Positions 3,074 to 43,813 of a DNA stretch of 64,000 bases are shown here, piece by piece. Origin of the DNA: an uncultured Gammaproteobacteria bacterium (GTDB lineage Bacteria > Patescibacteriota > Patescibacteriia > Magasanikbacterales > GWA2-37-8). Both the position numbers and the translations under genes were made by a program. The stretch is from the NCBI GenBank assembly GCA_964540825.1, contig CAZINT010000002.1, forward strand, positions 477 to 64,476. The letters run 5' to 3'. The stretch's first letter is position 1; each line of letters starts with the position of its first letter. The notes beneath the pieces were generated by a model. It saw only the letters and a list, made by a program, of their open reading frames with translations, did not search any database and had not been told where the DNA came from.

Positions 3074-3204
3074 ACGTTTTTGTTTATTGGCTTAGTCTAC
3101 CTGAAAGGATGTGATTTGCCTAGCGGGCCACGAAGGAAGGATGGGCAAAAAATAAAAACACCCCCGGCTGGTGAAAAGCTGGAGGTGCTGATTCTGGGCT
3201 GTAT

Positions 3205-3645
3205 TTAGAGCATCATTCCGCGGTTCATCATGCGACGACCTTTGGCTCCTTTTTGAGCGGCCATGTTTTGAATAGACGTTAAGCGCTTATCAGCTTGGGC
3301 CTGCGTAATAATTCCTTGACTGACCAAACCTTGGAGCATAGTTTTTGTTTTGGCAAGTTGAGCTTCTTTTATACGTTGCTGTAACTGATCTTGCGTTATG
3401 CCTTTTTCTTGAGCCAGTTCTTGAAGTGATTTTCCATCAGCCCAAGCATTTTTAACTTCGTCTATGGTAATACCGAGTAAGTTGGCTTGTTCCTGAAATA
3501 GGTTTTGCTGCTGGGTAGCGATTTGTTCGGTTGTTAAATTGCTCATCGGTCCAAACATGCCATGTGCAGAGGCAGCAGTAGCGCCAAGGAGACCCAAGCC
3601 TAAAACTGCAGGAAGAAAAGCATAAGCGGCTAGTTTGTATTTCAT
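3205..3645 (-). CDS. secreted hypothetical protein (signal peptide MKYKLAAYAFLPAVLGLGLLGATAASA)
   Basis: Signal peptide followed by a Gln-rich low-complexity helix. The start was chosen at the Met preceding the signal peptide. Confidence 0.55.
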   Translation of the reverse strand: MKYKLAAYAFLPAVLGLGLLGATAASAHGMFGPMSNLTTEQIATQQQNLFQEQANLLGITIDEVKNAWADGKSLQELAQEKGITQDQLQQRIKEAQLAKTKTMLQGLVSQGIITQAQADKRLTSIQNMAAQKGAKGRRMMNRGMML

Positions 3646-3784
3646 AAGAAAAGATTTAAGAACAAAAAAATCAGGCAGTACAATACGCCGTTCCCACAAC
3701 TGTCTCGCGAGAGTTGAAGACTCTTCAATTGAAGGTAGGAGCGTATCTCTACTAAAGTATTACTCTAGTGCCTGATATTTTATT

Positions 3785-4486
3785 TCATTCTTCAACTTCC
3801 CGGATTCCGTATGCTTCGATAGTGTCAGCTGAGCGATTGCCAAACACGACTACGCTGTCTCCGAGATCAAAATCTGCTCCGTAGGGAAGCCGGGTGCGCG
3901 GAGTTATGAGCACCTTTATGACTTTGCTTCGGCGTGCTTGCATCTGAAATCCGTCTGGAAATATGCGAATAATTTGACCGTGATGAATGTCTTCGTAAGG
4001 CGATTCGCCAAAACGCTGATAGAGAATGTTTCCCATGGGCAATTTTCCGGCATCGGCATAGTCAGCTAGGTCGCGGTGAAGCGGTGTAGCCGCAACGATG
4101 TAGCCACCGCCGATAACCAGGACAATGATTCCGAATGTGGAGTAGAGAACGGGTCTGCGGTAGGCAAACGCTGTTCGCCGCACTAAAAATTCCAAGAGAA
4201 CAATAAAAATGCCGGCAAGCGCTGCAAGTATCCAAGGGAATGAAATAAGAAAAGCGTACCAGCCGCGCGCCCCGAAGTTCGGAACTGAAGAAATACCCGT
4301 TCGATCAAGCATGAAAATAATAAAGCTGGCGAGATAAAACAGTGTTAACAAAAGAACTGTTCCGCCAACTGAGAGGCAAACTGTTTGGAGTACAAAATGC
4401 CAGCGCGGTGTCATTTTGATATGGCCTTCTTTGATTGGGCCAAGAACCCGGTCTTGAAGTGATGGCTGTTGTGTATCAAGCGGCAT
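3785..4486 (-). CDS. membrane protein, putative anti-sigma factor or sigma-associated membrane protein
   Basis: Four to five TM helices. Overlaps by 11 nt the upstream ECF sigma factor gene, which indicates translational coupling. Confidence 0.55.
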   Translation of the reverse strand: MPLDTQQPSLQDRVLGPIKEGHIKMTPRWHFVLQTVCLSVGGTVLLLTLFYLASFIIFMLDRTGISSVPNFGARGWYAFLISFPWILAALAGIFIVLLEFLVRRTAFAYRRPVLYSTFGIIVLVIGGGYIVAATPLHRDLADYADAGKLPMGNILYQRFGESPYEDIHHGQIIRIFPDGFQMQARRSKVIKVLITPRTRLPYGADFDLGDSVVVFGNRSADTIEAYGIREVEE

Positions 4487-7731: not shown

Positions 7732-9033
7732 TTATTCGTAACGCAAGGCGTCAATTGGGTTCAGTTTTGAGGCCTTAAACGCTGGATAGAGTCCAAATAC
7801 AACCCCGGTAATAACCGAAACGCCTACAGCGAGTACGACCGAGGTAATTGAAATAACAAAATCCCATTCATAGCCCAGCTTGTGCATGAGGAGGGAAGCC
7901 AGATACGAAATAACCGATCCGAAAATGATACCAATAATACCGCCAAGTGACGTAAGCGTGCCTGCTTCGAGTAAAAATTGGTTGCGAACAGCGGCCGGAG
8001 TCGCCCCAATGGCTTTACGTAGTCCGATTTCACGCGTGCGTTCGGCGACGGTAGCAAGCATGATATTAAGGATGCCAATACCGCCTACAACCAGTGCAAT
8101 GCCAGCCATGGCAACAAGAAAGATACGGAGCGCGTTAGTGATCTGAGTGAGTGCTCCGACCGCGTCAGCAATATTTCGTACCGTAAAATCAACGTCAGCA
8201 TCGTTTTTAATGCGATGACGAGTGCGCAGTGTCGTGTCTACATCGCGAATAGTTTGGTCGACATTTTGGTCACTATCAACTTTAATGTTGATCGTTTGCA
8301 AATAATGAATACCTAAAATTTGCTGCTGCCCAAGCGCGAGCGGAATAAAAATCTGATCATCCTGGTCTTGAAAAAAAGAACTTCCTCGTGGGCTAATAAC
8401 TCCAACAACTCGCAGTGGAACACCGCCGCTCGTGGGTGAAGTTGACCGTTTAACTTTGATTATCTGTCCGATGGGATCAACACCGTTAGCAGTAAAGAGT
8501 TCGTCGGCCACAGTTGAGCCAAGGACGACGACATTGGCGCCGCCCGATTCTTCTTGTTCGCTAAAAAACTGACCTTTCTGCATGTTAAAGCTGACAACAT
8601 TCGCGTATTCATGATCGGTTCCGATGAAATTAGTGTCAATTGTTTTATTTTCCCACGTTACCGTAGCACTTCCGCGGACGACTGCGTTAACGGCGCTGGC
8701 GTGCGGGACTGCGCCAGGGTCGCGCAGGGCAGCGACGTCCTCGTTAACAAGGGTGGTTATGACGATACCAAATACCTGGGCAGGCGGGCCTTTTTCGTTG
8801 CTTTTTCCTGGTTGAACGCTGAGCAGATTTGAACCGAGTTTGGTGACCTGGCCAAGCACCAAACTTTGCGCTCCGGCACCAAGTGAAATAATGATAATAA
8901 CCCCAGCAACCCCAATAACAATCCCGAGGATTGTCAGTACAGATCGGCCTTTACGTGCCCTAAGGCCGCGAAAAACCATTTTAATGGTTGAGAAGAAATT
9001 CATGTGAGTTGTAAGTACTGCCAACCCTGTCAA
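7732..9033 (-). CDS. ABC transporter permease, MacB/FtsX-like (permease 1)
   Basis: Same architecture and the same C-terminal LNPIDALRYE motif as 6472..7728, so the two are paralogous. Confidence 0.85.
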   Translation of the reverse strand: MTGLAVLTTHMNFFSTIKMVFRGLRARKGRSVLTILGIVIGVAGVIIIISLGAGAQSLVLGQVTKLGSNLLSVQPGKSNEKGPPAQVFGIVITTLVNEDVAALRDPGAVPHASAVNAVVRGSATVTWENKTIDTNFIGTDHEYANVVSFNMQKGQFFSEQEESGGANVVVLGSTVADELFTANGVDPIGQIIKVKRSTSPTSGGVPLRVVGVISPRGSSFFQDQDDQIFIPLALGQQQILGIHYLQTINIKVDSDQNVDQTIRDVDTTLRTRHRIKNDADVDFTVRNIADAVGALTQITNALRIFLVAMAGIALVVGGIGILNIMLATVAERTREIGLRKAIGATPAAVRNQFLLEAGTLTSLGGIIGIIFGSVISYLASLLMHKLGYEWDFVISITSVVLAVGVSVITGVVFGLYPAFKASKLNPIDALRYE

Positions 9034-9047
9034 AGATTGGCAAAGCG

Positions 9048-9764
9048 TTATTTGACTAACTCCTTTTCAGCGCTGGCAAAGACGCGATCAGCTACTTTTT
9101 CGTCAGACAAAATTAAACCGTCTTTAACGCGAATAATGCGACTGGCATGACGAGCAGTCTCTTGTTCATGTGTAACCAGAATAATTGTGCGGCCTTCGTC
9201 ATTGAGCTTTTGGAGGATGCTCATGACAATGTTACCTGATTTTGAATCAAGGTTTCCGGTTGGTTCGTCGGCAAAAATAACTGCCGGATTGCAGACTAAT
9301 GCGCGAGCAATAGCAACGCGTTGTTTTTCACCGCCGGAAATTTGGTTGGTAAAATAATTAAGGCGATGTCCAAGACCAACCGACTCAAGCGCGGCTTTCG
9401 CGAGCGAGTCTTGGTTTTTTTTCTTGCTATAGATGAGCGGAAGTTTTACGTTATCGAGTACGCTGGTGCGAGCAAGTAAGTTAAACGATTGGAATACAAA
9501 GCCGATGCGTTCATTGCGGAGTCCGGCTAAGTAGTTGTCGTCAAATCCTTCGGTGTTTTTACCTTCGAATTCGTAGACGCCGCCGGTCGGTCGATCAAGA
9601 AAGCTCAAAATATGCATGAGGGTTGATTTACCGCTGCCGCTTGGCCCCATGATGGCTACGAATTCACCTTGTTCAATTTTAAAGCTGACACCCTTAAGTA
9701 CCGATGTCGAGACTCCATCATTTTCGTAGTCTTTTGTAATATTTTGAACATCGATAAGACTCAT
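9048..9764 (-). CDS. ABC transporter ATP-binding protein (MacB/LolD-type ATPase)
   Basis: Walker [13 protein letters not shown] signature LSGGEKQR, Walker B ILVTHE. Confidence 0.9.
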
Positions 9765-17205: not shown

Positions 17206-18258
17206 TTACCCTTTATATTCGTTTAAAAAAACAAGCGTTGCGCGTTCGGCTATTTTGAGACGTGCATTGGTAAACTTTTTCATTTTTGATCTTTTGGCAC
17301 AATCAGGTAAACGGTGTTTGAGATAGACTGCCAGTACTCCGGGATGGATATAGGATTTTCTACAAATTGCAGGTGTGTTACCGAGCTCCTCGGCAACCTG
17401 TTGAATGGTGGTGGTGATATTTTTTTTAAGCTCGGTTTTGGTTGTGGCAGCAGATTGGATTAAAAGCTGCTTGAGTGCTGAGACGGTAGCGTGCCAGGTC
17501 CTGAAATCTTTGGCGGTAAAATCATTCTGGGAGATTTCTTTCAAATACGCATTTACATCGTTTGATTCAACACGATGGATTGACCCGTCGCTGTCGCGAT
17601 ATTCAAATAGTTCGTACCCGGGCAATTCTTGGCTGGTATGAATAATTTTAGCCAGTTCTTTGTTGTGGAATTCAACGGTATGCTGAATGCCTCGTTTACC
17701 GCGAAACGAAAATTGGATTGTATCGCCGTGTATTCGGGCATGACGATTGCGAAGGGTGGTTAAGCCATAGGATTTATTTTCTTTGGCATATTCTTCGTTG
17801 CCAATACGAATATGGGTTTTGTCGAGCACGGCTACGATCGCCGCTAGTATTTTTTGACGTGGATTTCCTTTTTCGTGAAGTTGTTTATGCACCGTTTCTC
17901 TAATTGCGGGCAGTGCTTGGCCGAACGCAAGCATGTGCTCAAATTTATTAGCATCTCTCACGGCTCGCCAATTAGGATGATAGAGATACTGCGTGCGCCC
18001 TCGTTGGTCCTTGCCGGTGGCCTGCAGGTGACCATTAGCAAATGGAGAAATGTGTACATCACGGTAGGCGGGCGGAATTTTAATTTGCCTGATCCGTTTT
18101 AAAATAGTTTTATCGGTAATTGTTGTGTTTGCAGTATCGCGATACCTAAAACCTCGCCCTAAACGAACGCGAGTGATGGTCAGTTTTTCTGGGTACATGT
18201 AGTGTAGTCCATTTTCTTCTGCAATACTTTTGCTGTCGAGTTCCGGTGTTTGGTGCAT
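17206..18258 (-). CDS. DNA topoisomerase IB (poxvirus/bacterial TopIB type)
   Basis: Conserved TopIB catalytic region: SFRGKRGIQHTVEF…DFTAKDFRTWHATV…CRKSYIHPGV (active-site Tyr context). Confidence 0.8.
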   Translation of the reverse strand: MHQTPELDSKSIAEENGLHYMYPEKLTITRVRLGRGFRYRDTANTTITDKTILKRIRQIKIPPAYRDVHISPFANGHLQATGKDQRGRTQYLYHPNWRAVRDANKFEHMLAFGQALPAIRETVHKQLHEKGNPRQKILAAIVAVLDKTHIRIGNEEYAKENKSYGLTTLRNRHARIHGDTIQFSFRGKRGIQHTVEFHNKELAKIIHTSQELPGYELFEYRDSDGSIHRVESNDVNAYLKEISQNDFTAKDFRTWHATVSALKQLLIQSAATTKTELKKNITTTIQQVAEELGNTPAICRKSYIHPGVLAVYLKHRLPDCAKRSKMKKFTNARLKIAERATLVFLNEYKG

Positions 18259-20798: not shown

Positions 20799-21506
20799 TT
20801 AGGCTAGACGCAGGCTTACTTTTTGAGCGTATTGCAAAAAAGTATGCGCAAGTACTTTCATTTCTTGTTCAGAAAAGGCATGAAAGCTTTTAAAAGAAGG
20901 CTTAAGCGTGATAGTGCTTCGAAATGATTGCAAAAATACCTGCTTGGCGCGATCCATCAGGCGAGCCATGTCTTCAAGTATGTGGTCGGGATGAATCTCT
21001 TTAATAAGGGTGCAGCGGAATTCATAGTCAAGGTTTCCGGCCTTAAGGAATTCAATGCTCTTTTGGATTGCTTCGGGATTCACTGCCGGACCTACTAATG
21101 AGGGGTATTCGGCCAGACTTGTTTTAATATCCATGGCAACATAATCGACAACACCTGAAGTGACTGCCTGCCGAAGTACGTCAGGACGATTGCCGTTAGT
21201 ATCCAACTTTACTAGGTAACCAAGCGATTTTATGGTATCCATAAATGGAATAAGATCCGGCATAATAGTGGGTTCGCCGCCGCTAATCACTACACCATCC
21301 AAGAAACCGCGCCGTTCATTTAAAAAATTAAATACAGCGGTTTCCGGAATAAAACTGTTTTTGAGTTGTATAATTTTTTCCGGCAAAACAAACTCGGGGT
21401 TATGACAGTAGCCGCATCGAAAATTACAGCCGGGGGTAAAAATAATGCAGGCTGTTTTTTCAGGATAATCAACGAGCGTGAACTGCTCGATTCCGGAGAT
21501 AAGCAT
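20799..21506 (-). CDS. nrdG: anaerobic ribonucleoside-triphosphate reductase activating protein (radical SAM)
   Basis: CNFRCGYCHNPE radical-SAM cluster motif. Located in the operon with nrdD. Confidence 0.85.
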   Translation of the reverse strand: MLISGIEQFTLVDYPEKTACIIFTPGCNFRCGYCHNPEFVLPEKIIQLKNSFIPETAVFNFLNERRGFLDGVVISGGEPTIMPDLIPFMDTIKSLGYLVKLDTNGNRPDVLRQAVTSGVVDYVAMDIKTSLAEYPSLVGPAVNPEAIQKSIEFLKAGNLDYEFRCTLIKEIHPDHILEDMARLMDRAKQVFLQSFRSTITLKPSFKSFHAFSEQEMKVLAHTFLQYAQKVSLRLA

Positions 21507-21518
21507 ATACCCAGTTTG

Positions 21519-21701
21519 TTAAACATTGGTGGTGTAGCGTGCGGTAAACTCGGAGTTAGCCGCTACACATTCTTCAAAATGTTTGCGTGAATAATGTTCC
21601 GACTTTTTGCCGATGTTGAAATGCGATACCGGGCGGTGGTAGCCCATCACCCGTGTCCATACTTCACACCGTGTTCGTTCAGCTAGTTGTTCTTTTTCCA
21701 T
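21519..21701 (-). CDS. free-standing ORF carrying the class III RNR C-terminal glycyl-radical motif (TRVMGYHRPV…NIGKKSEHYSRKHF), out of frame with nrdD
   Basis: Aligns to the E. coli NrdD C-terminus TRRVCGYLG…NAGKQEEVKRRVKH. ATG at 21701. Lies 21 nt after the nrdD stop and 12 nt before nrdG. Reading frame differs from nrdD. No SD. Confidence 0.55.
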   Translation of the reverse strand: MEKEQLAERTRCEVWTRVMGYHRPVSHFNIGKKSEHYSRKHFEECVAANSEFTARYTTNV

Positions 21702-21721
21702 AGTTTTTTATTTAATAATAA

Positions 21722-23839
21722 TTATTGAGCAGGTTGAGCGCTGGCATATTTTTCCAGCAGAACAGTGTCGTGCCGAGTGGCTTCTCGAATACCGAGCTTG
21801 GCATCACACGTTGGGCACCAGTCCCATTCACCGGCCAGATAGCCGTGTTTTGGGCAAATAGAAAATGTCGGTGTTATGGTGATGTAGGGAAGTTTAAAAT
21901 TCGTTAGCACTTTGCGTACCAGATTTCTGCAGGCCGAACCGCTCGAAATTCGTTCGCTCATATAACAATGCAAAACTGTTCCGCCAGTATATTTGGTTTG
22001 AAGCTTGTCCTGAAGCGTCAGTGCTTCAAAGACATCGTCGGTATAGCCCACCGGAAGCTGTGACGAGTTGGTGTAGTAGGGGGCATCCTTTGTGCCCGCT
22101 TGAAGAATATCTGAAAAACGTTTTTGATCTTCTTTGGCAAAGCGATAGGTTGTGCCTTCGGCCGGGGTAGCTTCTAGGTTGTAGAGGTTTTTAGTTTCTG
22201 TTTGGAAATCCTGCAGTTTAGCGCGCATAACATCAAGGGCACGAGCGGCAAATTCCTGACCCCATGGGGTGGCAATATTTTCTTTACCGTCAGTAAAATT
22301 GCGAATTGCTTCATTAAGACCATTAATACCAATGGTTGAGAAATGATTTTTCAAATAACCCAGGTAACGCTTGGTGTAGGGGAAGAGACCGGCGGCGATC
22401 CACTTTTGAATTTCTTTGCGTTTTATTTCCAGCGAAGTTTTGGCCAGTTCCATGAGGTGTAAGAGACGGGAAAAAAATTGTTCTTCATTGCCCCGCGCCA
22501 CATACCCAATGCGCGCGCTATTTATAGTCACGACACCAATGGACCCGGTCATTTCGGCTGATCCAAATAACCCCCCGCCGCGTTTGCGCAATTCTTTCAT
22601 ATCGAGCTGCAATCGACAGCACATGGAGCGAACATCGCCGGGATTTAAACTGGAGTTAATAAAATTTTGAAAGTAGGGCGTGCCGTATTTGGCAGTCATT
22701 TCAAACAGCGGTAGATTTTTGGGATCTTCCCAATCAAAATCTTTAGTAATATTGTACGTTGGGATGGGGAAAGTGAAGGTGCGGCCTTTGCTGTCACCCT
22801 CGGTCATTACTTCAATAAATGCCCGGTTAATAATATTCATTTCTTTTTCCAGCTCACCAAAAGTATAGGCAAACGGTTTGCCGCCAAGGATAAGCTGCTT
22901 AGGCTTTAAATCTTCCGGACAATTCCAATCAAGCGTGATATTAGTAAACGGTGTCTGCGTGCCCCACCGCGAGGGAATGTTAAGGTTGAAGACAAATGAC
23001 TGCATGTTTTGATAGACGTATTCATATACTTTGCGATCAATATATTTTTCTTGTGCTTCGGGAGAAGGGAAGGTAACGCACTCATTACGCAGATCGTTTT
23101 CAAGCTCTAGAGCGTATTTTTTTACAAACGGTGCCAAATAGGTATCAAAGCTTGAAAATGCCTGTGCTCCGGCCCATTCGTTTTGGAGTGTCCCCAAAAA
23201 ATTAACCATTTGAGCTACTGCTGACGATAAGTGTTTGGGTGGACCTGATTCAATCTTATCAGGGACGCCGTTAAAACCTTCTTCAAGAAGTACGCGCAAA
23301 CTCCATCCGGCGCAGTAGCCCGAGAACATATCTAAATCATGAATGTGCAGATCGGCATTCCGATGGGCGTCGCCAATTTCGGCCGGATAGATGTGCGAAA
23401 GCCAGTAGTTTGCCGTCACCTTGCCGGCGGTATTTAAAATCATCCCGCCCAGCGAGTAGCCCTGGTTTGAGTTGGCGTTAACGCGCCAATCTAACCGGTT
23501 GAGATATTCGCCGATGGTTTTTTCTACTTCCACGACTACATTTTTTTCGCTGCGTACCTCGCCGCGTTTTGCTCGGTAGAGGATATAGGCCTTAGCCGCT
23601 GCCGCCAGATTCGCTTCGATCAATGTTTGTTCTACAATATCCTGCACGTCTTCTACTGAAGGTATGGTGCATACAAATCGTTCCTCTAAGGCTGCCTGAG
23701 CCTTTACAGCTAAAGTTAGCGTCGGAATGTCTGATGCCTGCTCGGCAGCAAGCATTGCCTTTTGGATGGCGATCACAATCTTAGAAAGATTGAAATCAAC
23801 AATCGCCCCATTTCTTTTTTGAATTTTATACACGGGCAT
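21722..23839 (-). CDS. nrdD: anaerobic ribonucleoside-triphosphate reductase (class III) that lacks the glycyl-radical motif in its own frame
   Basis: N-terminal ATP-cone. Class III RNR core. C-terminal Zn-ribbon remnant (CPKHG…CPTC), then a 27-aa non-conserved tail and a stop. The ATG start at 23839 is preferred over the TTG at 23845. Confidence 0.85.
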   Translation of the reverse strand: MPVYKIQKRNGAIVDFNLSKIVIAIQKAMLAAEQASDIPTLTLAVKAQAALEERFVCTIPSVEDVQDIVEQTLIEANLAAAAKAYILYRAKRGEVRSEKNVVVEVEKTIGEYLNRLDWRVNANSNQGYSLGGMILNTAGKVTANYWLSHIYPAEIGDAHRNADLHIHDLDMFSGYCAGWSLRVLLEEGFNGVPDKIESGPPKHLSSAVAQMVNFLGTLQNEWAGAQAFSSFDTYLAPFVKKYALELENDLRNECVTFPSPEAQEKYIDRKVYEYVYQNMQSFVFNLNIPSRWGTQTPFTNITLDWNCPEDLKPKQLILGGKPFAYTFGELEKEMNIINRAFIEVMTEGDSKGRTFTFPIPTYNITKDFDWEDPKNLPLFEMTAKYGTPYFQNFINSSLNPGDVRSMCCRLQLDMKELRKRGGGLFGSAEMTGSIGVVTINSARIGYVARGNEEQFFSRLLHLMELAKTSLEIKRKEIQKWIAAGLFPYTKRYLGYLKNHFSTIGINGLNEAIRNFTDGKENIATPWGQEFAARALDVMRAKLQDFQTETKNLYNLEATPAEGTTYRFAKEDQKRFSDILQAGTKDAPYYTNSSQLPVGYTDDVFEALTLQDKLQTKYTGGTVLHCYMSERISSGSACRNLVRKVLTNFKLPYITITPTFSICPKHGYLAGEWDWCPTCDAKLGIREATRHDTVLLEKYASAQPAQ

Positions 23840-23863
23840 ATACAAATAAATAAAAAGAGTAAT

Positions 23864-24955
23864 TTATGCTTCTACACCAACTGCTTCTGAAATATTTTTA
23901 AAACCGTCCTTTGTCATTAGTTTAATAAGTTCTTTATTAATTTTGCTTATTGCCAACGGTCCGCCGTAAATAAAACCGGTTACAAGTTGTACTGCACTAG
24001 CACCCGCTTTAATTTTATGGTAGGCATCTTTTGCGGTGAAAATGCCGCCAACGCCAATTATTTTGAGTTTGCCCTTGCTGAGGCGATACAATGTACGAAT
24101 GGTCTGCGTACTCATCGTTTGCAAATGTTTTCCGGAAATTCCTCCGGGGTGATGGAGTTCATCAGGTGTACTTTTAAACGCTATATCTGAGCGATCCTTG
24201 ATGAGATTGGTGGCGATAATTCCAGTTATTTTTGCTTCAAGCGCGCACGTAACAATTTTAGAAAGGTCGCTATCACTAAGGCGGGGTCCTATTTTTATAA
24301 AGACATCTTTCCGGCTGCCCGTTTTGTTTCGGTGTTCTGAAAGCATGGTAAGTAATAGTTTTATGAACGAAATTTGAGAAAAAATGCTCTCACCAGCCAC
24401 ATTCGGACAGCTTACATTAAGCGTGATGTAGTCGGCGCTGCCCTCAACTGCCGAAAACGTCTTAAGATAATCCTCAGCCATTGCCGGGCCACTCAGTCCA
24501 TTGCTTGGGGCAATACTGATTCCATAGGGGATGCGGTGTGGCTGTATTTCTTTGTAGCGATCTAACGTTTTTTGTGCGCCATCGTTGGCTAAGCCGTAGT
24601 GAACGATGAGCCCTTTATCGTTCGGCAACCTCCAGAGCCGCGGTTTGGGATTGCCCTCCTGGCGAGTAAAGGTTATCGATCCCAGTTCGGCCCACCCAAA
24701 TCCCAGCATGGGGTAGGCGAGCGGCGCATCAATATATTTATCAAATCCCGCTGCGAGTCCGACGGGATTGGGGAGACGAAGATGTCCTAGTGAAATACGC
24801 AGTCGGTTGTCGTGTACTTGTAAAAACTGCGCACCTATTTTGCTGAGCAGCGGACGTTTGCTTGCTGCGCCAAGGAGGCGCAATGCTGTTTCGTGAATGC
24901 TTTCAGGATCAGTGTAGGTAAAAAGAAGTGGGCGAATACAGTGTGTATAAAACAT
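23864..24955 (-). CDS. pyrD: dihydroorotate dehydrogenase (quinone), class 2
   Basis: LPNPVGLAAGFDK motif plus the FMN-binding and C-terminal GGI…GASAVQLVTG motifs of class 2 DHODH. Confidence 0.85.
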   Translation of the reverse strand: MFYTHCIRPLLFTYTDPESIHETALRLLGAASKRPLLSKIGAQFLQVHDNRLRISLGHLRLPNPVGLAAGFDKYIDAPLAYPMLGFGWAELGSITFTRQEGNPKPRLWRLPNDKGLIVHYGLANDGAQKTLDRYKEIQPHRIPYGISIAPSNGLSGPAMAEDYLKTFSAVEGSADYITLNVSCPNVAGESIFSQISFIKLLLTMLSEHRNKTGSRKDVFIKIGPRLSDSDLSKIVTCALEAKITGIIATNLIKDRSDIAFKSTPDELHHPGGISGKHLQTMSTQTIRTLYRLSKGKLKIIGVGGIFTAKDAYHKIKAGASAVQLVTGFIYGGPLAISKINKELIKLMTKDGFKNISEAVGVEA

Positions 24956-25359: not shown

Positions 25360-25824
25360 TTATTTTAAAACATACAGCACCAATAAAAAAAGTCCGCCCC
25401 ACCACCCAAGATCTGAAATAATAAGGCTGACAGCAATTTTTCTCTGCCAGCTTGAAGGCAGCAATTCACTGGCATTACCAGCTTTTTCGCGGGCAAGTAA
25501 AAAAGGACTGACGCTCAATGAAAGAAAACAGCCGTTAAGAATAAGTATGACTGCTAAAAGGGCGTGAATCCCCGGGATACCGTACAAACCCTCGTGGCGG
25601 TACAAAATACTGCCTCCGAGAATCGCCAAAAATATGCCTGCCCAAATCATCGGCTTGGTGACTTTGTGGGTGCGCGTGGTAGCTTCAGTCCAGTAGCGTG
25701 ATTTTCTTCCCAAAAAGCCATGAATATCAATAACTGTAACCGCCCCGAGTCCGATAACAAAACCAGCTAGGAAAAGAAACAATCCTAGAGTGTCCAAAAT
25801 ATTAATTGAGTCTATAAATTGCAT
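25360..25824 (-). CDS. hypothetical membrane protein (4 TM)
   Basis: Hydrophobic helices. Overlaps the tspO end. The start is uncertain (25842 or 25824). Confidence 0.45.
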   Translation of the reverse strand: MQFIDSINILDTLGLFLFLAGFVIGLGAVTVIDIHGFLGRKSRYWTEATTRTHKVTKPMIWAGIFLAILGGSILYRHEGLYGIPGIHALLAVILILNGCFLSLSVSPFLLAREKAGNASELLPSSWQRKIAVSLIISDLGWWGGLFLLVLYVLK

Positions 25825-26302
25825 AATTAAGATATGAGGCAAAACTTACCCATAGTATATAAGGAATAAGAAGGGCAGCGGCGGGCTTGGAAATTTTGGC
25901 AAAAGTAACGATGCAGGCGGCAATACTTATCCATAAAAGGGCAATTTCGGCTAAGGCCAAACCGAGTGTGTGAGCATTAAAAAACAAAAATGACCAGATA
26001 AAGTTTAAAGCAAGCTGTACTCCAAAAAGCACCAAAGAAATTTTTGCTTGTCGATGAGTGTGTCGTCGTTCCCAAATAAGAAAAGCGGCTACTCCCATCA
26101 AAAAATAGAGCGCTGTCCATACCGGTCCAAAGATCCAGGAAGGAGGCTGCAAAGCGGGTTTCACAAGCGTGGCGTACCAGGTTGGTATCGCGGGAGTTGT
26201 AAAAACAGCGCCAATAATTCCCACTAATTCACATACACCGATAAAAACGCAAAGCGCTATACTTTTTTTAAGTTTGTCGTTTTTAAAAAATGACATATCC
26301 AT
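25802..26302 (-). CDS. tspO: TspO/MBR family tryptophan-rich sensory protein
   Basis: Five TM helices with the conserved PPSWIFGPVWTALYFLMG motif. Confidence 0.8.
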   Translation of the reverse strand: MDMSFFKNDKLKKSIALCVFIGVCELVGIIGAVFTTPAIPTWYATLVKPALQPPSWIFGPVWTALYFLMGVAAFLIWERRHTHRQAKISLVLFGVQLALNFIWSFLFFNAHTLGLALAEIALLWISIAACIVTFAKISKPAAALLIPYILWVSFASYLNYAIYRLN

Positions 26303-26305
26303 TGG

Positions 26306-27313
26306 TTATAGAGAAACAACATTTTGCGCCTTGCCCTCTCTGAAGGAAATAATATTTTCTACAGTCACGTCAATAATTCTTTGCAGGGCTTCGGTGCTAT
26401 TAAAGGCATTGTGCGGTGTTACAATAGTATTTGGATGGTCAATGATAAGATTGTTGATAAGTGAGGTTTTAAATTTAGTTGCCGGGTCTGTGCTCGCCAT
26501 AATTTTTTCAATGTGTTGCAATAAATTTTCATCTTCCAGAACATCAAGTCCGGCGCCGGCAAGCGTGCCGTTATTAAGGGCTTCAAGCAGAGCTTCTGGG
26601 TCAACCAGACCACCTCGAGCGGTGTTAACAAGCATGCTACCCTGCTTCATGAGTTTAAGTGTGTCTTTATTGATGAGATGTTCTGTGGCCGGAAATAAAG
26701 GGATGTGAAGGGTCAGAATGTCGGCCTGGCTGAGCACGTCCTCGAGCGAAGCGTATGTATAACCAAGCTCTTTTGCAAAGGTGCCGTTAGGCTTGGTGTC
26801 ATAGGCTACGACGTTCATTTCAAAGCCTTTGGCAATACGAATAACGTGATAACCGATTTTTCCAGTACCAATAACCCCGAGCGTCTTATCTTTAAGATCA
26901 ATTCCGCGAAGCCCTTCAAAGTCAAAAGCACCTTCTTTTACCCGTTTGACGGATTGAAATAATTTTCGGGTGAGTCCGAGTATGAGTGCAAAGGTATGTT
27001 CAGCAACGGTATTTTCTCCATACGTTGGGACGTTTGAAACCACTACGCCTTTTTTCCGCGCTGTTTCAAGATCAATGTGATCGAATCCTGTGCTCATGGT
27101 GACGATGTACTTGAGGCGGGGAAGGGCGGCGATAATTGTTTCGGTGACCGTGGAATTAATAAAAACAACAAGAATTTCTGTTTCAGGATTAAGATTATCA
27201 AGCGAAATCATTCCTTCGTGCACATCGATATGGTACGAAGTCAATTTATTTTTAGCATAATCGTTCAGCTCTCTCCAAAGTCCGTAAAAAGCAATTGTTT
27301 GAACAGCAGACAT
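26306..27313 (-). CDS. D-isomer specific 2-hydroxyacid dehydrogenase (NAD-binding)
   Basis: GVIGTGKIGYHVIRIAKGFEMNVVAYD Rossmann motif. The catalytic R/E/H are in the expected order. Confidence 0.85.
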   Translation of the reverse strand: MSAVQTIAFYGLWRELNDYAKNKLTSYHIDVHEGMISLDNLNPETEILVVFINSTVTETIIAALPRLKYIVTMSTGFDHIDLETARKKGVVVSNVPTYGENTVAEHTFALILGLTRKLFQSVKRVKEGAFDFEGLRGIDLKDKTLGVIGTGKIGYHVIRIAKGFEMNVVAYDTKPNGTFAKELGYTYASLEDVLSQADILTLHIPLFPATEHLINKDTLKLMKQGSMLVNTARGGLVDPEALLEALNNGTLAGAGLDVLEDENLLQHIEKIMASTDPATKFKTSLINNLIIDHPNTIVTPHNAFNSTEALQRIIDVTVENIISFREGKAQNVVSL

Positions 27314-27475
27314 AGCTTAAAAATAAAAAATAATTCTTCGTCTTTACAATATCACTTTCTGATGATTTAGTCACCAACCGAAAAAGTCGTCAACTATCGC
27401 GTTCAGAAATACGCCTATTTTAGACCTAATGTGTAACAAGCGGTAGTAGTGTGAGTAGTTGTATTTAATGTGGTA

Positions 27476-27491
27476 AAGCAGTATACTGCTT
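27476..27491. promoter_or_regulatory. perfect 16-bp palindrome AAGCAGTATACTGCTT in the divergent crt promoter region
   Basis: Exact inverted repeat. A related half-site GCAGTTTCTGAA lies 40 bp downstream. Confidence 0.3.
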
Positions 27492-27598
27492 CTGAAATCG
27501 TTGCTAGTTTTTAACCAGCAAGTTGGTTAAGCAGTTTCTGAATTTATCAGTGTTAGGGGGTAATTTGTTCGCAGCATTGTTTTAAAAGCTTTGTGTAT

Positions 27599-29071
27599 AT
27601 GCGTCGTAAAAAAGTTATCATCATCGGGGCCGGTTTTGGAGGCCTGTCTGCTGCAGCTCTCTTGGCGTACAAAGGTTTCGATGTTACAGTTTTTGAAAAA
27701 AACGATCAATCGGGCGGTCGGGCCAGTGTGTACCGTGAAAAAGGCTTTACGTTTGACATGGGGCCGTCATGGTACCTCATGCCGGATGTTTTTGAAAAAT
27801 TTTTTGCCGAGTTTGGCAAAAAACCAACTGATTTTTTTGAGTTGAAAAGGCTTGATCCGGCATATCGCATTTATCATGGTAAAAACGAGTATGTAGATGT
27901 GTCGGCTGATCTTGAGAAAAACATGGCGCTTTTTGAGGCTATGGAGCCGGGAAGCGCAAAGCAGCTGACGCGGTACCTGGCGCAGTCAAAGTATCAGTAT
28001 GACGTATCGATGAGTGATTTTTTGTATAAGGATTACACGTCGCTCATGGATTTTTTTAATCGCCGTATGCTTGTGGAAGGCCGGAAACTGCATGTATTTG
28101 AATCGCTTGATACCTATACGCGGCGTTATTTTAAAAGCGATAAACTTCGTAAGATTTTGGAGTATAGTATGGTATTCCTCGGGGGAGCGCCCAAAAACAC
28201 ACCGGCCATTTACTCACTCATGTCGCACATAGACTTTAATCTGGGAGTATGGTATCCAACCGGCGGCATCGGTGCTGTTGTGCAGGCTATAGAAAAAGTA
28301 GCCCGCTCGTATGGTGCGCATTTTGCGTTTAATACCCCCGTAGAAAGAATAATTGTTGAAGACAAGCAAGCTCGCGCAGTGGTCGTCAACGGCCAAACGA
28401 TTGAAGCCGATATTATTATTTCCGGAGCCGATTACAAACATACCGAAAGTACGCTTTTGACTAAAGAAAATCAGACGTATTCAAAAAAATATTGGGATAA
28501 GCGAACGCTCGCGCCGTCAGCATTCATGCTGTATCTCGGCTATGACCGAAAAATCGCCGGGCTCGAACACCATACGTTATTTTTTGACAATGACTGGGTG
28601 CGTCATTTTGATGCTATTTTTGAGCATCCGGAGTGGCCGGAACATCCGTCGTATTACGTTTCGTGTGCATCTAAAACTGATCCCACGATTGTCCCTCCTG
28701 GTGGGGAGGCGCTCGTAATCTTGGTTCCCATTGCTGCGGGGCTTGAAGATACCGATGAAATCCGGGAAAAATATACTGAAAAAGTATTAGTTCATTTGGA
28801 ATCGCTTTTGGGGCAAAATCTGCACGATACTGTTGTTAAAAAAGTTTTTAGCCAGCGCGATTTTGCCAGCATGTTTAATGCGTATAAGGGTACGGCGCTC
28901 GGCCTCAGTCATACGCTTATGCAGACAGCGGTTTTTCGCCCGCGCCACCAGAGTAAAAAAGTTTCGAACCTCTATTATACAGGGCAGTACACTCACCCGG
29001 GGATCGGCATGCCAATGTGTTTGATCTCTTCCGAGCTTGTCGCGGGAGCTATTGAAAAAAAATATGGTTGA
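27599..29071 (+). CDS. crtI: phytoene desaturase (CrtI family FAD-dependent desaturase)
   Basis: N-terminal GAGFGGL FAD motif and the …GPSWYLMPDVFEKFF… CrtI signature. 492 aa. Confidence 0.8.
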   Translation: MRRKKVIIIGAGFGGLSAAALLAYKGFDVTVFEKNDQSGGRASVYREKGFTFDMGPSWYLMPDVFEKFFAEFGKKPTDFFELKRLDPAYRIYHGKNEYVDVSADLEKNMALFEAMEPGSAKQLTRYLAQSKYQYDVSMSDFLYKDYTSLMDFFNRRMLVEGRKLHVFESLDTYTRRYFKSDKLRKILEYSMVFLGGAPKNTPAIYSLMSHIDFNLGVWYPTGGIGAVVQAIEKVARSYGAHFAFNTPVERIIVEDKQARAVVVNGQTIEADIIISGADYKHTESTLLTKENQTYSKKYWDKRTLAPSAFMLYLGYDRKIAGLEHHTLFFDNDWVRHFDAIFEHPEWPEHPSYYVSCASKTDPTIVPPGGEALVILVPIAAGLEDTDEIREKYTEKVLVHLESLLGQNLHDTVVKKVFSQRDFASMFNAYKGTALGLSHTLMQTAVFRPRHQSKKVSNLYYTGQYTHPGIGMPMCLISSELVAGAIEKKYG

Positions 29072-29882
29072 CCAGACAATTTATCAAACCTTTAAAAAGG
29101 GGAGTAAAACATTTTTTACCAGTAGTTTGTTTTTTCCTCGCGCTGTTCGCGAAGATGTTTTTATTTTCTATGCCTTTGCCCGGGTGGCAGATGATTTGGT
29201 TGATAGCGTACCGGCCAAGTTAAGCGATTTTGCCTTGTTTAAAAAACAATATACCGCTGCCCTAGCAGGAACTATGTCTGGTAACACAATTATCGATTCT
29301 TTTGTTGACCTCATGAGTCGCCGGTCGATTCCCCGAGAATGGATAGATTCATTTTTGCGGGCAATGACGAGCGACACGGAAAAGAAAACGTACGTGACAT
29401 TGGCTGAGCTTGAAGCGTATATTTACGGCTCAGCCGAAGTTATTGGTTTGGTTATGGCCCGACTTATGAACTTGCCGCCCGAGTCGCATACTACTGCCCA
29501 GCTTCTTGGCAAAGGCTTCCAGTATATTAATTTTATTCGCGATATTGCCGAAGATATTCAGCTCGGCCGCCAGTATTTGCCGCTCGAAGTGCTTCGTCCG
29601 TTTGGTTTTGAGTTGTTGACTGAACAGACGGCTCACTGCCGAGCACCTGACTTTATAGCCTTAATTAAGCATGAATTGGCACGCTACCGCGCCTGGCAAT
29701 CAGCTGGTGAAGCGGGCTTTTCCTTTATACCGAAGCGTTCACTTTTACCTATCAAAACCGCTGCTGATATGTACCGCTTTACTGCCAACGTAATTGAAAG
29801 CGATCCGTTCGTTATTTTCAGAAAAAAAGTAAAGCCAACCAAGTCAAAAATTATCTGGCAGTTATTCCTTAATCTCTTATGA
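29064..29882 (+). CDS. crtB: phytoene synthase (squalene/phytoene synthase family)
   Basis: The ATG overlaps the crtI stop (ATGGTTGA). YAFARVADDLVD and second Asp-rich motifs. Confidence 0.8.
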   Translation: MVDQTIYQTFKKGSKTFFTSSLFFPRAVREDVFIFYAFARVADDLVDSVPAKLSDFALFKKQYTAALAGTMSGNTIIDSFVDLMSRRSIPREWIDSFLRAMTSDTEKKTYVTLAELEAYIYGSAEVIGLVMARLMNLPPESHTTAQLLGKGFQYINFIRDIAEDIQLGRQYLPLEVLRPFGFELLTEQTAHCRAPDFIALIKHELARYRAWQSAGEAGFSFIPKRSLLPIKTAADMYRFTANVIESDPFVIFRKKVKPTKSKIIWQLFLNLL

Positions 29883-30940
29883 ATTCCTTGTATACCGAAG
29901 CCTCCAATCAGCTCCGCCCGTTTTTAAAAGATTTTTTTGCAGAGCAAATAAAAACATATCGTCCGGTAAACACCTGGTCTAAAGATGCATTGAAACGACT
30001 TTATGCCTCGGTTATAAAAGGTAAAATGGTGCGCGGCGGTATGGTATTTCTCGCGTATGCTCTGGCTCAAAAAAAGTCGGACGAAACCTGTCTGCGTCTG
30101 GCAGCGGCGATTGAAATTGTCCATACAGCGCTTATCGTTCACGACGATATTATGGATCTTGACGGGCTCCGGCGCGGAGATGTTACCCTATATAAACAGT
30201 ATGAAGCGCTCGTAAGAAAACAAGACGGCCACAATCCAGAGCATGTTGGAGAGTCGCTAGGTATTTGCGCTGGTGACATAGCTATTTTTTTGAGTTTTTA
30301 TTTATTGTCTTCTTTGCCGCAAACTGCAAATGGCACGCTCAGGCAGCTTATCAGTATTTTTGCGCAGGAGATCACCCGGGTTGGTTTCGCTCAAATGCAG
30401 GATGTCTATTCCGGCGCGCTTACTGCACTGCTTTCGGCTAAGGATATTTTGCGCCTGTATTGTTATAAAACGGCGCGGTACACGTTTTCATTGCCGCTCA
30501 TGCTAGGGAGCTTGGCGGCCGGCCAAACGGCGGCAAATGTACCATTGCTTGAAAAGTTTGGAGAACATTTGGGAATTATTTTTCAAATCAAAGATGATGA
30601 GCTCGGCATGTTTGGCGATGAGCAAAGGATTGGTAAGCCGGTCGGTTCGGATATCCGGGAAGGCAAAAAGACTTTATATTATTATTTTCTGTTTGCCCGG
30701 GCGACGAATACGGAGCGTGCTCGGCTCAAGCGTATTTTTGGCAATAGTTCGGTTGGTGAAAGAGAAATAGCCGTTGTCCGCACCATGATTGAACGCTACG
30801 AAATTGAAAAAAAGATACACACCATCTTATCTCGTGAAATCCGGGCGGTGCGAAAAATAGTGGACGCCTACCGCGGACCTAAGGCCGAGAAACAAATGCT
30901 TAACGAACTTTTGGAGTATAATCTTAACCGATCGAAATGA
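29879..30940 (+). CDS. polyprenyl (geranylgeranyl) diphosphate synthase
   Basis: FARM motif IVHDDIMD and SARM motif FQIKDDELG. 4-nt overlaps with both neighbours. Confidence 0.8.
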   Translation: MNSLYTEASNQLRPFLKDFFAEQIKTYRPVNTWSKDALKRLYASVIKGKMVRGGMVFLAYALAQKKSDETCLRLAAAIEIVHTALIVHDDIMDLDGLRRGDVTLYKQYEALVRKQDGHNPEHVGESLGICAGDIAIFLSFYLLSSLPQTANGTLRQLISIFAQEITRVGFAQMQDVYSGALTALLSAKDILRLYCYKTARYTFSLPLMLGSLAAGQTAANVPLLEKFGEHLGIIFQIKDDELGMFGDEQRIGKPVGSDIREGKKTLYYYFLFARATNTERARLKRIFGNSSVGEREIAVVRTMIERYEIEKKIHTILSREIRAVRKIVDAYRGPKAEKQMLNELLEYNLNRSK

Positions 30941-31764
30941 AAGAGCTTTTAGTTGTACTGTACCACACCTCACGGCCGCGTTTCTGGCTGTACCTGGCGG
31001 GCACCTATGTCGTTGGCTACGCTGCCGGGGGAGTAGGACTGCATATTTTTGCGGAAGGGCGTTTTTGGTTTTTTTTGTGTTTTTTTGCTCTACCGGCCAA
31101 TATTTTTTTGTACGGTATTAATGATTACGCTGATGCTGATACCGATCAGTTTAACAGTAAAAAAGGGAGTGAGGAGCGTTTGCTTAAAACAGCGGAACGA
31201 AAAAAACTGCGGGCCGTTTTATGGGGTATTGCCCTCGTAACTTTAGCGATCGCCATGGTGAGTCGGTCGGGTATGCTGGTTGTTTTTTTGCTGCTAGCTT
31301 TTTTTTACAGTGCGCCACCGCTTCGCTTCAAAGCGCATCCGTTCATTGATTTTGCATCCAACATCTTATACGGACTGCCTGGGTTTATCGGTTATTTTCA
31401 AGCCAGCGGGCACTTTCCGGCCTGGCCGATCGCCGTAGCGGTATTTTTTTGGACGAGTGCGATGCATCTTTTTTCGGCTATTCCGGATATTGAGAGTGAC
31501 GCGAAAGCCGGGCTTACGACCAGTGCTATTTTTTTCGGTCAAAAAAAGTCGCTCTTTATATGTTCTGCTTTTTGGGCGCTGAGCAGTATGATTGCGGCAG
31601 TTACACTGCCTGCCTATTGGGTGGCGGTACTAGGTCTCTTGTATCCGCTCGTACCGCTTTTTTTGGTCAGTCGCCCGATGTTAATCAAGCGTGTGTATTG
31701 GTATTTTCCTTTGTATAATGCAATTGTTGGTTTTGGATTGTTTCTCGCGGCAATTTGGCGTTAA
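30937..31764 (+). CDS. UbiA-family prenyltransferase (lycopene elongase-like, 8 TM)
   Basis: NDYADADTD Asp-rich motif. Multiple TM helices. Last gene of the crt-type operon. Confidence 0.7.
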   Translation: MKELLVVLYHTSRPRFWLYLAGTYVVGYAAGGVGLHIFAEGRFWFFLCFFALPANIFLYGINDYADADTDQFNSKKGSEERLLKTAERKKLRAVLWGIALVTLAIAMVSRSGMLVVFLLLAFFYSAPPLRFKAHPFIDFASNILYGLPGFIGYFQASGHFPAWPIAVAVFFWTSAMHLFSAIPDIESDAKAGLTTSAIFFGQKKSLFICSAFWALSSMIAAVTLPAYWVAVLGLLYPLVPLFLVSRPMLIKRVYWYFPLYNAIVGFGLFLAAIWR

Positions 31765-42321: not shown

Positions 42322-42604
42322 GAATTCCTCACTTTAAGCTGTTTAACGTCATACATCTTTTTTAAGCAGTTGTCAAGATAGTTTCCCAAAAAAACCTTAT
42401 ACATTAGCCAAAAATAAACTTTTAAATTTTTTATGTACTTAGTAATTTTTTAGGATTGACAAAACACCTTTTTTATGCTAGGATTGAACGTTTTGAAAAG
42501 TAACCCGACGATTAATTTCGGCTCGTTGGGCTGCAGGTTCTCGAGTGGAGCTATTTGCAAGCTCCATTTGGAGAGGACCTGTTTTTCGATCAAGGAGTCA
42601 TCAC

Positions 42605-43813
42605 ATGCCGATCCAGTCTGTCGTCACCCCGATCACCTCCAACCTCAGCGATGGCGTCCCCGAGCTGCTTGGGGATGACAAGGACACCGACCGCATGGTC
42701 GTTCCGCCCTTTGTCCAGCCCCCCATGATTGGCCTTGCGCCCCCCGAGCGCGCGGTCCTGGAGGCGTACGCGCGGTTCTACGCCATGCTCAACCCCCAGC
42801 TCGAATTTCCGCAGCCAAGGATCATTGATGGCCAGTACTACTGCGGCATGCCCGCTGGCCTCCCGTGCTGCGACCGATCCTTCACGGTCGACAGGTGGAG
42901 CATCCGTAGCGGTATCGTGATCGGGATTTGCCAGCAGGCGAGTGTTGTTTTCGTGAAGGTGAACAATCACGAGTACCCCGCGGCCAAGCACCTCCTCTGG
43001 ACCGGCTCCCTGACCCGGGCCAGGGAGATCGCCGCCAACCAGGCAGAGAAGATCCAGCGCCCGCCCGCCCAGGCCCGCCCCGTGCGTCGTCGCCCCGAGG
43101 ATCTCGTGGTCAAGCCGACGTCCGGTACGATCTTCCGTCCCATCCCTCCGAAGAAGGTGTTCGTCCCGGCCGCGGTCACCCCCGCGCCTGCGATCACTAT
43201 CACCGTGGCCACCCCGGCCGCTGTCATCAAGGAGGACAAGAACAAGGGTGCCGAGAAGCGCGTCGCCCGCAAGACCAAGGTCCACGAGCTCACCTCGCGC
43301 CTCCGCCTCGTCGGCATGGAGGAGAACGAGGCCTCCAGCGCCGCCGAACGAGTGGCGTACAAGTTCGAGAAGAAGACCGGTAGCGAATTGACCCCAGAGG
43401 ATAGTGCGTCGAACATCTTCGGCAGCGCCATCGACGGGCTTCTCGAGGCCGCCGCGACCTTCGGGGAAGATAACGCCGAGTATCAGGTCAAGATCAGGCT
43501 GTGCCGCTACTACCTGGCGGCCTCCACTATCCTCGAGTCGATCCTGACCGGAGAGACCGACGTGGAGCAGATCAAGCGCCACGACCACCCCGAGATCATG
43601 GACAAGATCGTGAGCATGCTCGCGGCTGTCAAGCATGAGCTCGCGGATCGTGCGGCCATCGCTCGCGCCCACGCCGTGCCCAGCGAGAAGCCCTTCGCTG
43701 TCGTCGAGGGCCACCGCCGACGCCCGACCCCGGTCGCGCCCACCAAGAAGCTCGGGGGTGGTCAGAACGCCAACAAGAACAACAACCAGGCCCGCGGCAA
43801 GCGCGGGCAGTAG
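42605..43813 (+). CDS. hypothetical protein (402 aa), very high GC (~65%) foreign gene, Ala/Pro-rich
   Basis: TTGACA-N17-TAGGAT promoter at 42457-42487. SD AAGGAG 7 nt before the ATG. Strong third-position GC bias. The terminator at 43856-43895 follows. No family recognised. Confidence 0.6.
   Translation: MPIQSVVTPITSNLSDGVPELLGDDKDTDRMVVPPFVQPPMIGLAPPERAVLEAYARFYAMLNPQLEFPQPRIIDGQYYCGMPAGLPCCDRSFTVDRWSIRSGIVIGICQQASVVFVKVNNHEYPAAKHLLWTGSLTRAREIAANQAEKIQRPPAQARPVRRRPEDLVVKPTSGTIFRPIPPKKVFVPAAVTPAPAITITVATPAAVIKEDKNKGAEKRVARKTKVHELTSRLRLVGMEENEASSAAERVAYKFEKKTGSELTPEDSASNIFGSAIDGLLEAAATFGEDNAEYQVKIRLCRYYLAASTILESILTGETDVEQIKRHDHPEIMDKIVSMLAAVKHELADRAAIARAHAVPSEKPFAVVEGHRRRPTPVAPTKKLGGGQNANKNNNQARGKRGQ

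Follow-up and report, generated by a model that had tools for sequence, protein, structure and literature searches.

The pathway to the C50 carotenoid bacterioruberin, with LyeJ, CrtD and CruF as its enzymes, has been established in haloarchaea (PMC9258230, PMC9410494). In Haloarcula japonica, the corresponding genes lie together as crtD (crtI/D, c0507), lyeJ (c0506) and cruF (c0505) (Yang et al. 2015, via PMC9258230 and PMC9410494; also PMC11946383), and the CrtID desaturase family was founded on two proteins of this species, C0507 and D1086, each of which was assigned both CrtI and CrtD activity by knockout and complementation in a study whose authors argue that bacterioruberin producers with a single CrtI must have a bifunctional enzyme (PMC11946383). 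Bacterioruberin genes have also been predicted in Thermoprofundales (PMC9585477), a gain of lyeJ, crtD and cruF has been inferred for Hikarchaeia (PMC7599335), and in 2023 Candidatus Patescibacteria of deep Lake Baikal were reported to have the same three genes (PMC9948471). Here, we analyzed a 64,000-nt stretch of contig CAZINT010000002.1 (positions 477 to 64,476; assembly GCA_964540825.1), referred to below as the window, which carries a run of four genes: crtI, crtB, an isoprenyl diphosphate synthase (IDS) gene and a UbiA-family prenyltransferase gene. We consider it likely that with these genes a bacterium of the Candidate Phyla Radiation (CPR) has a self-contained operon whose product is an acyclic C50 carotenoid of the bacterioruberin series.

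All four genes lie on the forward strand and overlap one another. The open reading frame (ORF) of crtI (27599-29071, 490 aa) is open from a GTG at 27593 and likely begins at the ATG at 27599; it shares 8 nt, ATGGTTGA, with crtB (29064-29882, 272 aa), which is followed by a crtE-like gene for a short-chain IDS (29879-30940, 353 aa) and, last in the operon, by the lyeJ-like UbiA prenyltransferase gene (30937-31764, 275 aa), with ATGA overlaps of 4 nt at both of these latter junctions. An earlier note on this DNA, made from its sequence alone, had described a 4-nt overlap at every junction, which is right for two of the three and wrong for crtI/crtB; the six genes it reported here, namely these four and the genes for a TspO protein and a D-2-hydroxyacid dehydrogenase (HADH) on the other strand, are all present where it had placed them, with strong Pfam/NCBIfam matches. 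Because the gene directly 3' of the operon, for a VOC/glyoxalase-fold protein (PF06983; 31772-32209, reverse strand), is convergent, we take the operon to comprise four genes; at its other end, a 279-bp spacer separates crtI from the divergent HADH gene. An independently called Logan contig that is 100% identical (L088) has the same gene boundaries (490, 272, 353 and 275 aa) and the same crtI ATG at 27599, and an identical 13.7-kb stretch is present in the Logan assembly of SRR11567520, an independent sequencing run. GC content in the operon (0.42-0.46) is the same as in the remainder of the window, and Rfam and tRNA scans gave no match in the operon region. Relative to the related locus L084, dN/dS lies between 0.09 and 0.19 for crtB, IDS and UbiA, and the operon genes are therefore under purifying selection; for crtI, dN is 0.11 with dS saturated.

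Compared with NCBIfam models, the UbiA-family protein (PF01040) passes the cutoff of PRK12875 (281 bits against 205), with 121 bits for PRK13595 and 95 bits for PRK13105 (cutoff 217, not reached). The prenyltransferases in the LyeJ position of two haloarchaeal reference replicons, Halarchaeum (L081, crtB-crtI-prenyltransferase-cruF) and Halocatena (L082, crtI-prenyltransferase-cruF), also match PRK12875 best (397 and 426 bits), whereas the CrtEb-type elongase of an Arthrobacter crt cluster (L083) falls to PRK13105 (469 bits against the 95 of the window protein). These haloarchaeal enzymes, which are orthologues by synteny and not themselves characterized proteins, are 38-39% identical to the window protein over its full length. 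Two Asp-rich motifs, N62-D63-x2-D66-x3-D70 and D184-x3-D188 (NDxxDxxxD and DxxxD), are invariant across the CPR, methanogen, Asgard, haloarchaeal and Arthrobacter enzymes, and a neighbor-joining tree rooted on the Arthrobacter enzyme, built without support values and indicative only, nests the haloarchaeal sequences within the clade of the window's UbiA protein. We thus predict a LyeJ-like lycopene elongase/1,2-hydratase, in keeping with the guess of the earlier note at an elongase or hydratase of the C50 or bacterioruberin type; a phylogeny of this protein was a check the note had proposed, and the tree groups it with the haloarchaeal LyeJ-position enzymes.

The earlier note had also considered that this protein might group with quinone or heme prenyltransferases. 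On such a reading, the gene would be unrelated to pigment synthesis and would lie downstream of the crt genes by chance, as a prenyltransferase of quinone, heme O, chlorophyll or ether-lipid synthesis. Many of its homologues are indeed labeled 4-hydroxybenzoate polyprenyltransferase by JGI, but others there are labeled lycopene elongase/hydratase, and the models for quinone, heme, chlorophyll, tocopherol and ether-lipid prenyltransferases (UbiA, MenA, MqnP, ChlG/BchG, homogentisate and GGGP) reach at most 43 bits against cutoffs of about 180-490. Gene order argues in the same direction. Scanning one genome per species for relatives of the UbiA protein yielded 271, the best 80 of which were kept as loci, and crtI and/or crtB lie directly upstream of the UbiA gene in about 75 of these 80, in the core order crtI-crtB-(IDS)-UbiA, across several phyla and both domains; in the window itself, the gene overlaps the IDS gene by 4 nt. 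Model scores, overlap and conserved adjacency together effectively refute a chance neighbor, which we regard as barely credible.

The desaturase of the operon is predicted to be a CrtID-type phytoene/carotenoid 3,4-desaturase. It passes the cutoff of NF058655, the equivalog for CrtID (bifunctional phytoene desaturase/3,4-desaturase), with 716.7 bits against 640, close to which stands a haloarchaeal CrtI orthologue with 754 bits, and shares 48% identity with the products of haloarchaeal crtI genes that adjoin lyeJ and cruF; on crtI_fam it scores 490 bits. Because the CrtID family is bifunctional, one desaturase gene would be enough here.

CrtB (PF00494, 180 bits) is less readily placed, and it is here that a C30 pathway (4,4'-diapocarotenoids, by CrtM and CrtN) or a squalene pathway (HpnCDE), either fed by a farnesyl diphosphate (FPP) synthase, has to be considered. 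Its best NCBIfam matches include HpnD (121 bits, cutoff 279) and HpnC (105 bits, cutoff 250), with CrtB itself at 105 bits, all far under cutoff; the solved structures that match it best are those of CrtM-type enzymes and HpnC, and at 272 aa it is short, like CrtM, while the product length of the IDS is itself a prediction. Identity to Halocatena CrtB is 32%. Several lines nevertheless favor a C40 phytoene synthase. CrtB is always coupled to a CrtID-type desaturase, and the operon has a single SQS_PSY gene, while the Hpn route needs two (HpnC and HpnD). The residue aligned with Phe26 of Staphylococcus aureus CrtM, a position that we take to gate C30 versus C40 synthesis, with a bulky Phe restricting the substrate to FPP, is Ser in the window protein; across 76 aligned CrtB proteins from cassette, haloarchaeal and Arthrobacter loci, it is Ser in 46, Thr in 23 and Ala in 3, with a gap in 4, so that all 72 with a residue there have a small one of these three kinds, and it is Phe in the CrtM-type structures 5iys, 8is6 and 2zco. 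CrtI, which the earlier note had thought might prove to be an HpnE-type squalene enzyme, reaches only 58 bits on HpnE (cutoff 283) against 717 on CrtID, and an additional IDS in the operon would be needless for making FPP. We therefore consider a C30 or squalene product very unlikely.

For the IDS, family membership is clear (polyprenyl synthase family PF00348, 169 bits), and this much of the earlier note's "GGPP synthase" stands; the geranylgeranyl diphosphate (GGPP) identity is drawn from context, with no equivalog cutoff reached, and we presume rather than assert it. Its best solved homologue is the GGPP synthase of Corynebacterium glutamicum (3lk5), and its motifs DDIMD and DDELG are common to other IDS genes of such cassettes, with the variants DDVID and DDFLS in the IDS (CrtE) of the Arthrobacter crt cluster. 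The strongest argument for GGPP as its likely product is comparative: an IDS gene within the cassette is found mostly in CPR loci and in two Woesearchaeota (L015 and L059) and is absent from the other archaeal loci, a pattern that is expected if the IDS supplies GGPP, which archaea already make for their own lipids.

Linkage to cruF bears on how far the pathway goes. Using a CruF profile built from 36 homologues, we found that 34 of the 80 loci have cruF adjoining the cassette, including the close CPR relatives L003-L006, whose order is cruF-crtI-crtB-IDS-UbiA; a CPR CruF protein matches CruF models best, yet under the cutoffs of these models. Because CruF acts only on the C5 units that LyeJ adds, this linkage provides strong indirect support for assigning C50 chemistry to the UbiA enzymes. 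It also speaks against an operon that ends at C40, with lycopene or one of its derivatives, hydrated or prenylated in some other way, as its product and a UbiA enzyme that uses another acceptor or has one LyeJ activity. An identity of only 38-39% to the haloarchaeal LyeJ orthologues leaves some room for such an outcome, as does a CPR, methanogen and Asgard clade without a characterized member, the carotenoids of methanogens being listed as unstudied (PMC9410494). Set against this are the score of the UbiA protein above the curated cutoff of the model that the LyeJ orthologues match (PRK12875) and the strict linkage to a CrtID-type desaturase, whose 3,4-desaturation makes sense only after elongation and hydration, and we judge a C40 end point improbable.

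In the window itself, the profile gave no CruF match at E<=10 over the 64 kb, and the 279-bp spacer upstream of crtI holds no cruF remnant, that is, no ORF of at least 40 aa matching the profile. Likewise, when about 55 ORFs of the window, each 120 aa or longer, were scanned against Pfam, none matched CruF (PF04240), rhodopsin, Blh/Brp or lycopene cyclase, which bears out the earlier note, where rhodopsin, blh and cyclase genes had been listed as missing. The pathway could still be complete, with bacterioruberin itself as the product, if a cruF gene lay elsewhere in the genome; its adjacency to the cassette in L003-L006 and the other linked loci, and Lake Baikal Patescibacteria in which cruF lies far from lyeJ and crtD (PMC9948471), make this possible, if doubtful, given that CruF was found neither in L001, the nearest relative (16.8 kb), nor in L084, a sister locus, and that many cassette loci, for example all those of Methanomassiliicoccales, have no adjoining cruF.

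A number of points weigh against the proposed C50 operon. Beyond the limits noted above for the tree and the haloarchaeal comparison sequences, an enzyme 38% identical to LyeJ orthologues need not use the same acceptor or be bifunctional, and the assignments of the enzymes in the CPR, methanogen and Asgard clade rest on sequence. Neither CrtB nor the IDS passes a curated equivalog cutoff, the IDS scoring at best 126-149 bits against cutoffs of 450-600, and the IDS has Ala at position -5 ahead of its first Asp-rich motif, a feature that longer-chain synthases show as well. To accept their electrons, CrtI-type desaturases require O2 or a quinone. The window encodes an anaerobic ribonucleotide reductase, and we saw no quinone or respiratory genes in it.

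Building on the observed gene identities, family memberships and conserved synteny, we can propose a chemistry, chain lengths, a product and a physiological role for the four-gene operon. The IDS would produce GGPP, two molecules of which CrtB would join into phytoene, and the single CrtID-type flavoenzyme would convert phytoene to lycopene. The LyeJ-like UbiA enzyme would then add a C5 unit from dimethylallyl diphosphate (DMAPP) onto C-2 and water onto C-1 at both ends of lycopene, after which the same CrtID enzyme would introduce the 3,4 and 3',4' double bonds. Because no cruF is found in the window and full bacterioruberin would need CruF, the operon predicts bisanhydrobacterioruberin (C50H72O2), a membrane-spanning diol, as its natural end product, which by analogy may serve in membrane stiffening or fluidity control and in antioxidant protection.

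The region upstream of crtI contains a candidate sigma-70-type promoter on the forward strand (27459..27487), with a -35 element TTGTAT at 27459-27464, a 17-nt spacer and a -10 element TATACT at 27482-27487. This TTGnnT-17 nt-TATACT block precedes crtI not only in the window but also in L001 and L084, and its conservation in the three loci is the sole basis for proposing it as the putative promoter of the crt operon; a generic promoter/terminator scan did not flag the block, and the number of sites in that scan was no higher than in shuffles. A perfect 16-bp palindrome, AAGCAGTATACTGCTT, overlaps the -10 element and is formed by the first of two copies, 53 nt apart, of a TGGTWAAGCAGT...TTCTGAA motif (TGGT(A/T)AAGCAGT followed by TTCTGAA; 27471-27542). 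Palindrome and repeat may represent an operator; neither L001 nor L084 showed the repeat.

The host appears to be a bacterium of the Patescibacteria (CPR), given the gene content of the window, the names of the homologues of a neighboring gene (orf154, described below) and the labels of the crt relatives. Pfam scans identified sigma-70, an F-type ATPase, methionyl-tRNA synthetase and the CPR-typical T4SS pilin PF18895, together with many proteins that match no Pfam family, and the nearest relatives of the crt genes come from metagenome-assembled genomes (MAGs) of Magasanikbacteria/Patescibacteria. Many of the best-matching MAGs bear the title "uncultured Gammaproteobacteria", and their cassette content and clustering with Patescibacteria-labeled loci suggest that these titles are placeholder labels. 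Encoded in the window are NrdD, an anaerobic ribonucleotide reductase, its activase NrdG, a radical-SAM protein (20799-23845, reverse strand), and a bacterial type IB topoisomerase (17206-18258, reverse strand), which fit an oxygen-poor lifestyle, and the host looks anaerobic or micro-oxic.

Beyond the CPR, the cassette has a wide host range. Among the 80 loci, its bacterial hosts are Patescibacteria (Magasanik-, Levy-, Davies- and Gracilibacteria), Armatimonadota and Anaerolineae, and its archaeal hosts are Woesearchaeota, Methanomassiliicoccales, Methanomicrobiales (Methanoculleus, Methanocalculus, Methanofollis and Methanoregula), Thor-, Hermod- and Promethearchaeota, Hadarchaeota and Bathyarchaeota. 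Strict anaerobes are found among L008-L080, such as Methanoculleus (L047), Methanocalculus (L060 and L068), Thorarchaeota (L017) and Hadarchaeota (L034), and some such hosts are cultured methanogens and Asgard archaea; our literature search found no paper on pigments of these methanogens and Asgard archaea. We also observed variation in cassette content: Asgard loci have an additional divergent pair of crtI-like and crtB-like genes upstream of the cassette, and among CPR loci, L012 (6129-8849) has crtB-IDS-UbiA with no upstream crtI match, and L058 (3138-6141) and L061 (1369-6040) have two crtI-like genes each.

A gene for a quinone-type (class 2) dihydroorotate dehydrogenase, pyrD, recurs close to these cassettes. 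In the window (23864-24955, reverse strand; NF003652, 329 bits, cutoff 267), pyrD stands upstream of crtI at a distance of about 2.6 kb, past orf154-TspO-HADH, with nrdD/nrdG directly downstream of it. It immediately adjoins crtI in three lineages, represented by L001 of the window's own clade (3018-4154), L007 (4549-5697), where it is on the crtI strand and overlaps by 8 nt, and the Woesearchaeota locus L065 (4868-5773), and it adjoins TspO in L089 and L090 (1771-3372 in L090). This recurrence is odd in organisms that are not known to make quinones; PyrD and CrtI both need a membrane electron acceptor.

A broader reading, which we offer tentatively and hold to be rather unlikely as a whole, is that the crtID-crtB-lyeJ core, with or without cruF, is not peculiar to haloarchaea and actinobacteria but forms a widespread module of mostly or strictly anaerobic non-phototrophs (CPR, DPANN, Methanomicrobiales, Methanomassiliicoccales, Asgard archaea, Hadarchaeota, Armatimonadota and Anaerolineae), that in CPR its product is the only self-made membrane lipid, and that its desaturase uses an acceptor that is neither O2 nor a self-made quinone. 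If this were so, the membrane lipid made by CPR cells that otherwise scavenge their lipids would be a bilayer-spanning C50 diol "rivet", and the desaturase acceptor might be shared with the dihydroorotate dehydrogenase that recurs beside crtI.

On the reverse strand upstream of crtI lie the HADH gene (26306-27313; family match in Pfam/NCBIfam), the TspO gene (25802-26302; PF03073, 179 bits) and orf154, a membrane protein gene (25360-25824) that overlaps TspO by 23 nt. The earlier note had remarked that TspO classically lies within crt clusters, which holds for Rhodobacter, and its hint at a functional tie to the crt genes is not upheld by our comparisons: TspO was found within 8 kb on either side of the cassette in none of the 80 related loci, it is common across the CPR, and three further CPR TspO loci (L090-L092) have no crt genes nearby. 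The HADH-TspO pair also lies upstream of the operon in L084 and L085, where Sua5 and a 1349-aa surface protein come in between; in this position it is confined to the window's own clade and is not near the cassette in the 80 loci. From these patterns, the adjacency of TspO to the crt genes appears to be local synteny only, with HADH and TspO outside the pathway, and TspO as a crt regulator was rejected as unsupported.

The orf154 product has four transmembrane segments and matches no Pfam or NCBIfam family; among its 2700 homologues, which are about 70-80% identical, those with names all come from Patescibacteria MAGs (Uhr-, Campbell-, Komeili-, Sung- and Kaiserbacteria, and Paceibacterota). 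The order TspO then orf154 is kept in the window, in L092 (6464-6922) and in L089 (1557-2021), where the contig stops just upstream of HADH; the latter two are without crt genes, and the pair extends to distant CPR as well (62% and 70% identity). In L004, orf154 (8792-9301) follows the lyeJ-like gene in place of TspO. A role for orf154 as a CruF substitute was rejected: it occurs CPR-wide, in L004 it stands alongside CruF, and its pairing with TspO extends to loci that lack crt genes.

On the other side of the operon, the VOC-family protein has a 65%-identical homologue directly upstream of crtI in the distant locus L038 (5141-5546, 457-927). Farther away, a 56% GC island at 42545-43813 (forward strand) stands out within the window (about 45% GC); its 422-aa product, rich in Pro, Ala and Arg, matches no Pfam family, and the long antisense ORF at 42590-43714 (reverse strand) is probably a GC artefact. 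The island contains no tandem repeats and no Rfam match, and may have been horizontally acquired.

CPR bacteria are regarded as near-minimal symbionts that scavenge lipids and cofactors. A selected, self-supplied C50 operon would mean that they invest in at least one specialized membrane isoprenoid, and the comparative data place the same cassette broadly among anaerobic archaea that are not known to have been studied for carotenoids. Haloarchaeal genes failed in E. coli (PMC11946383); because its enzymes are non-halophilic, the operon would be a better candidate for heterologous reconstitution.

Among the closest described systems is the H. japonica-type cluster: both it and the window combine a CrtID-family desaturase (48% identity) with a PRK12875 prenyltransferase (38-39%, same Asp-rich motifs), co-linear in one operon, and in both one bifunctional desaturase would be enough. 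Unlike the haloarchaeal cluster, the window has no cruF, has crtB and a dedicated IDS gene between desaturase and prenyltransferase, and lacks a bop/brp/blh regulatory context; its host is a non-halophilic, probably anaerobic CPR bacterium with non-halophilic proteins, not an aerobic archaeon. Actinobacterial C50 clusters, such as crtE-crtB-crtI-crtYeYf-crtEb of C. glutamicum and that of Arthrobacter (L083), similarly group crtE, crtB, crtI and a UbiA-family elongase gene, and the window IDS resembles their CrtE/GGPP synthase in its best PDB match (3lk5) and related Asp-rich motifs, but their elongase belongs to another family (PRK13105), and they carry C50 cyclase genes and yield cyclic C50 products. 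With Rhodobacter-type crt clusters containing tspO (crtK), the window shares a TspO/MBR protein (PF03073) encoded beside crt genes; unlike that of Rhodobacter, its TspO falls under the cutoff of the alphaproteobacterial equivalog (118 bits against 180), keeps this adjacency only in immediate relatives, and belongs to a CPR type paired with orf154, often near the dihydroorotate dehydrogenase gene, with no tetrapyrrole or photosynthesis context.

The Lake Baikal Patescibacteria (PMC9948471) agree with the window in host group, predicted pathway and proposed role in membrane adaptation. In the Baikal bins, the genes are on separate reads or cruF is far off; the window has crtI, crtB, IDS and lyeJ overlapping tightly in one operon that would supply its own precursor, and its 64 kb are without cruF. 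The earlier note had called a pigment pathway unusual for a biosynthetically minimal symbiont, should the organism be one, which needs tempering in light of the Baikal report; because bacterioruberin genes were already reported in Patescibacteria there, the locus is not a new kind of system, but a clear example of a known pathway type, marked out by its compact, self-supplied and cruF-less operon.

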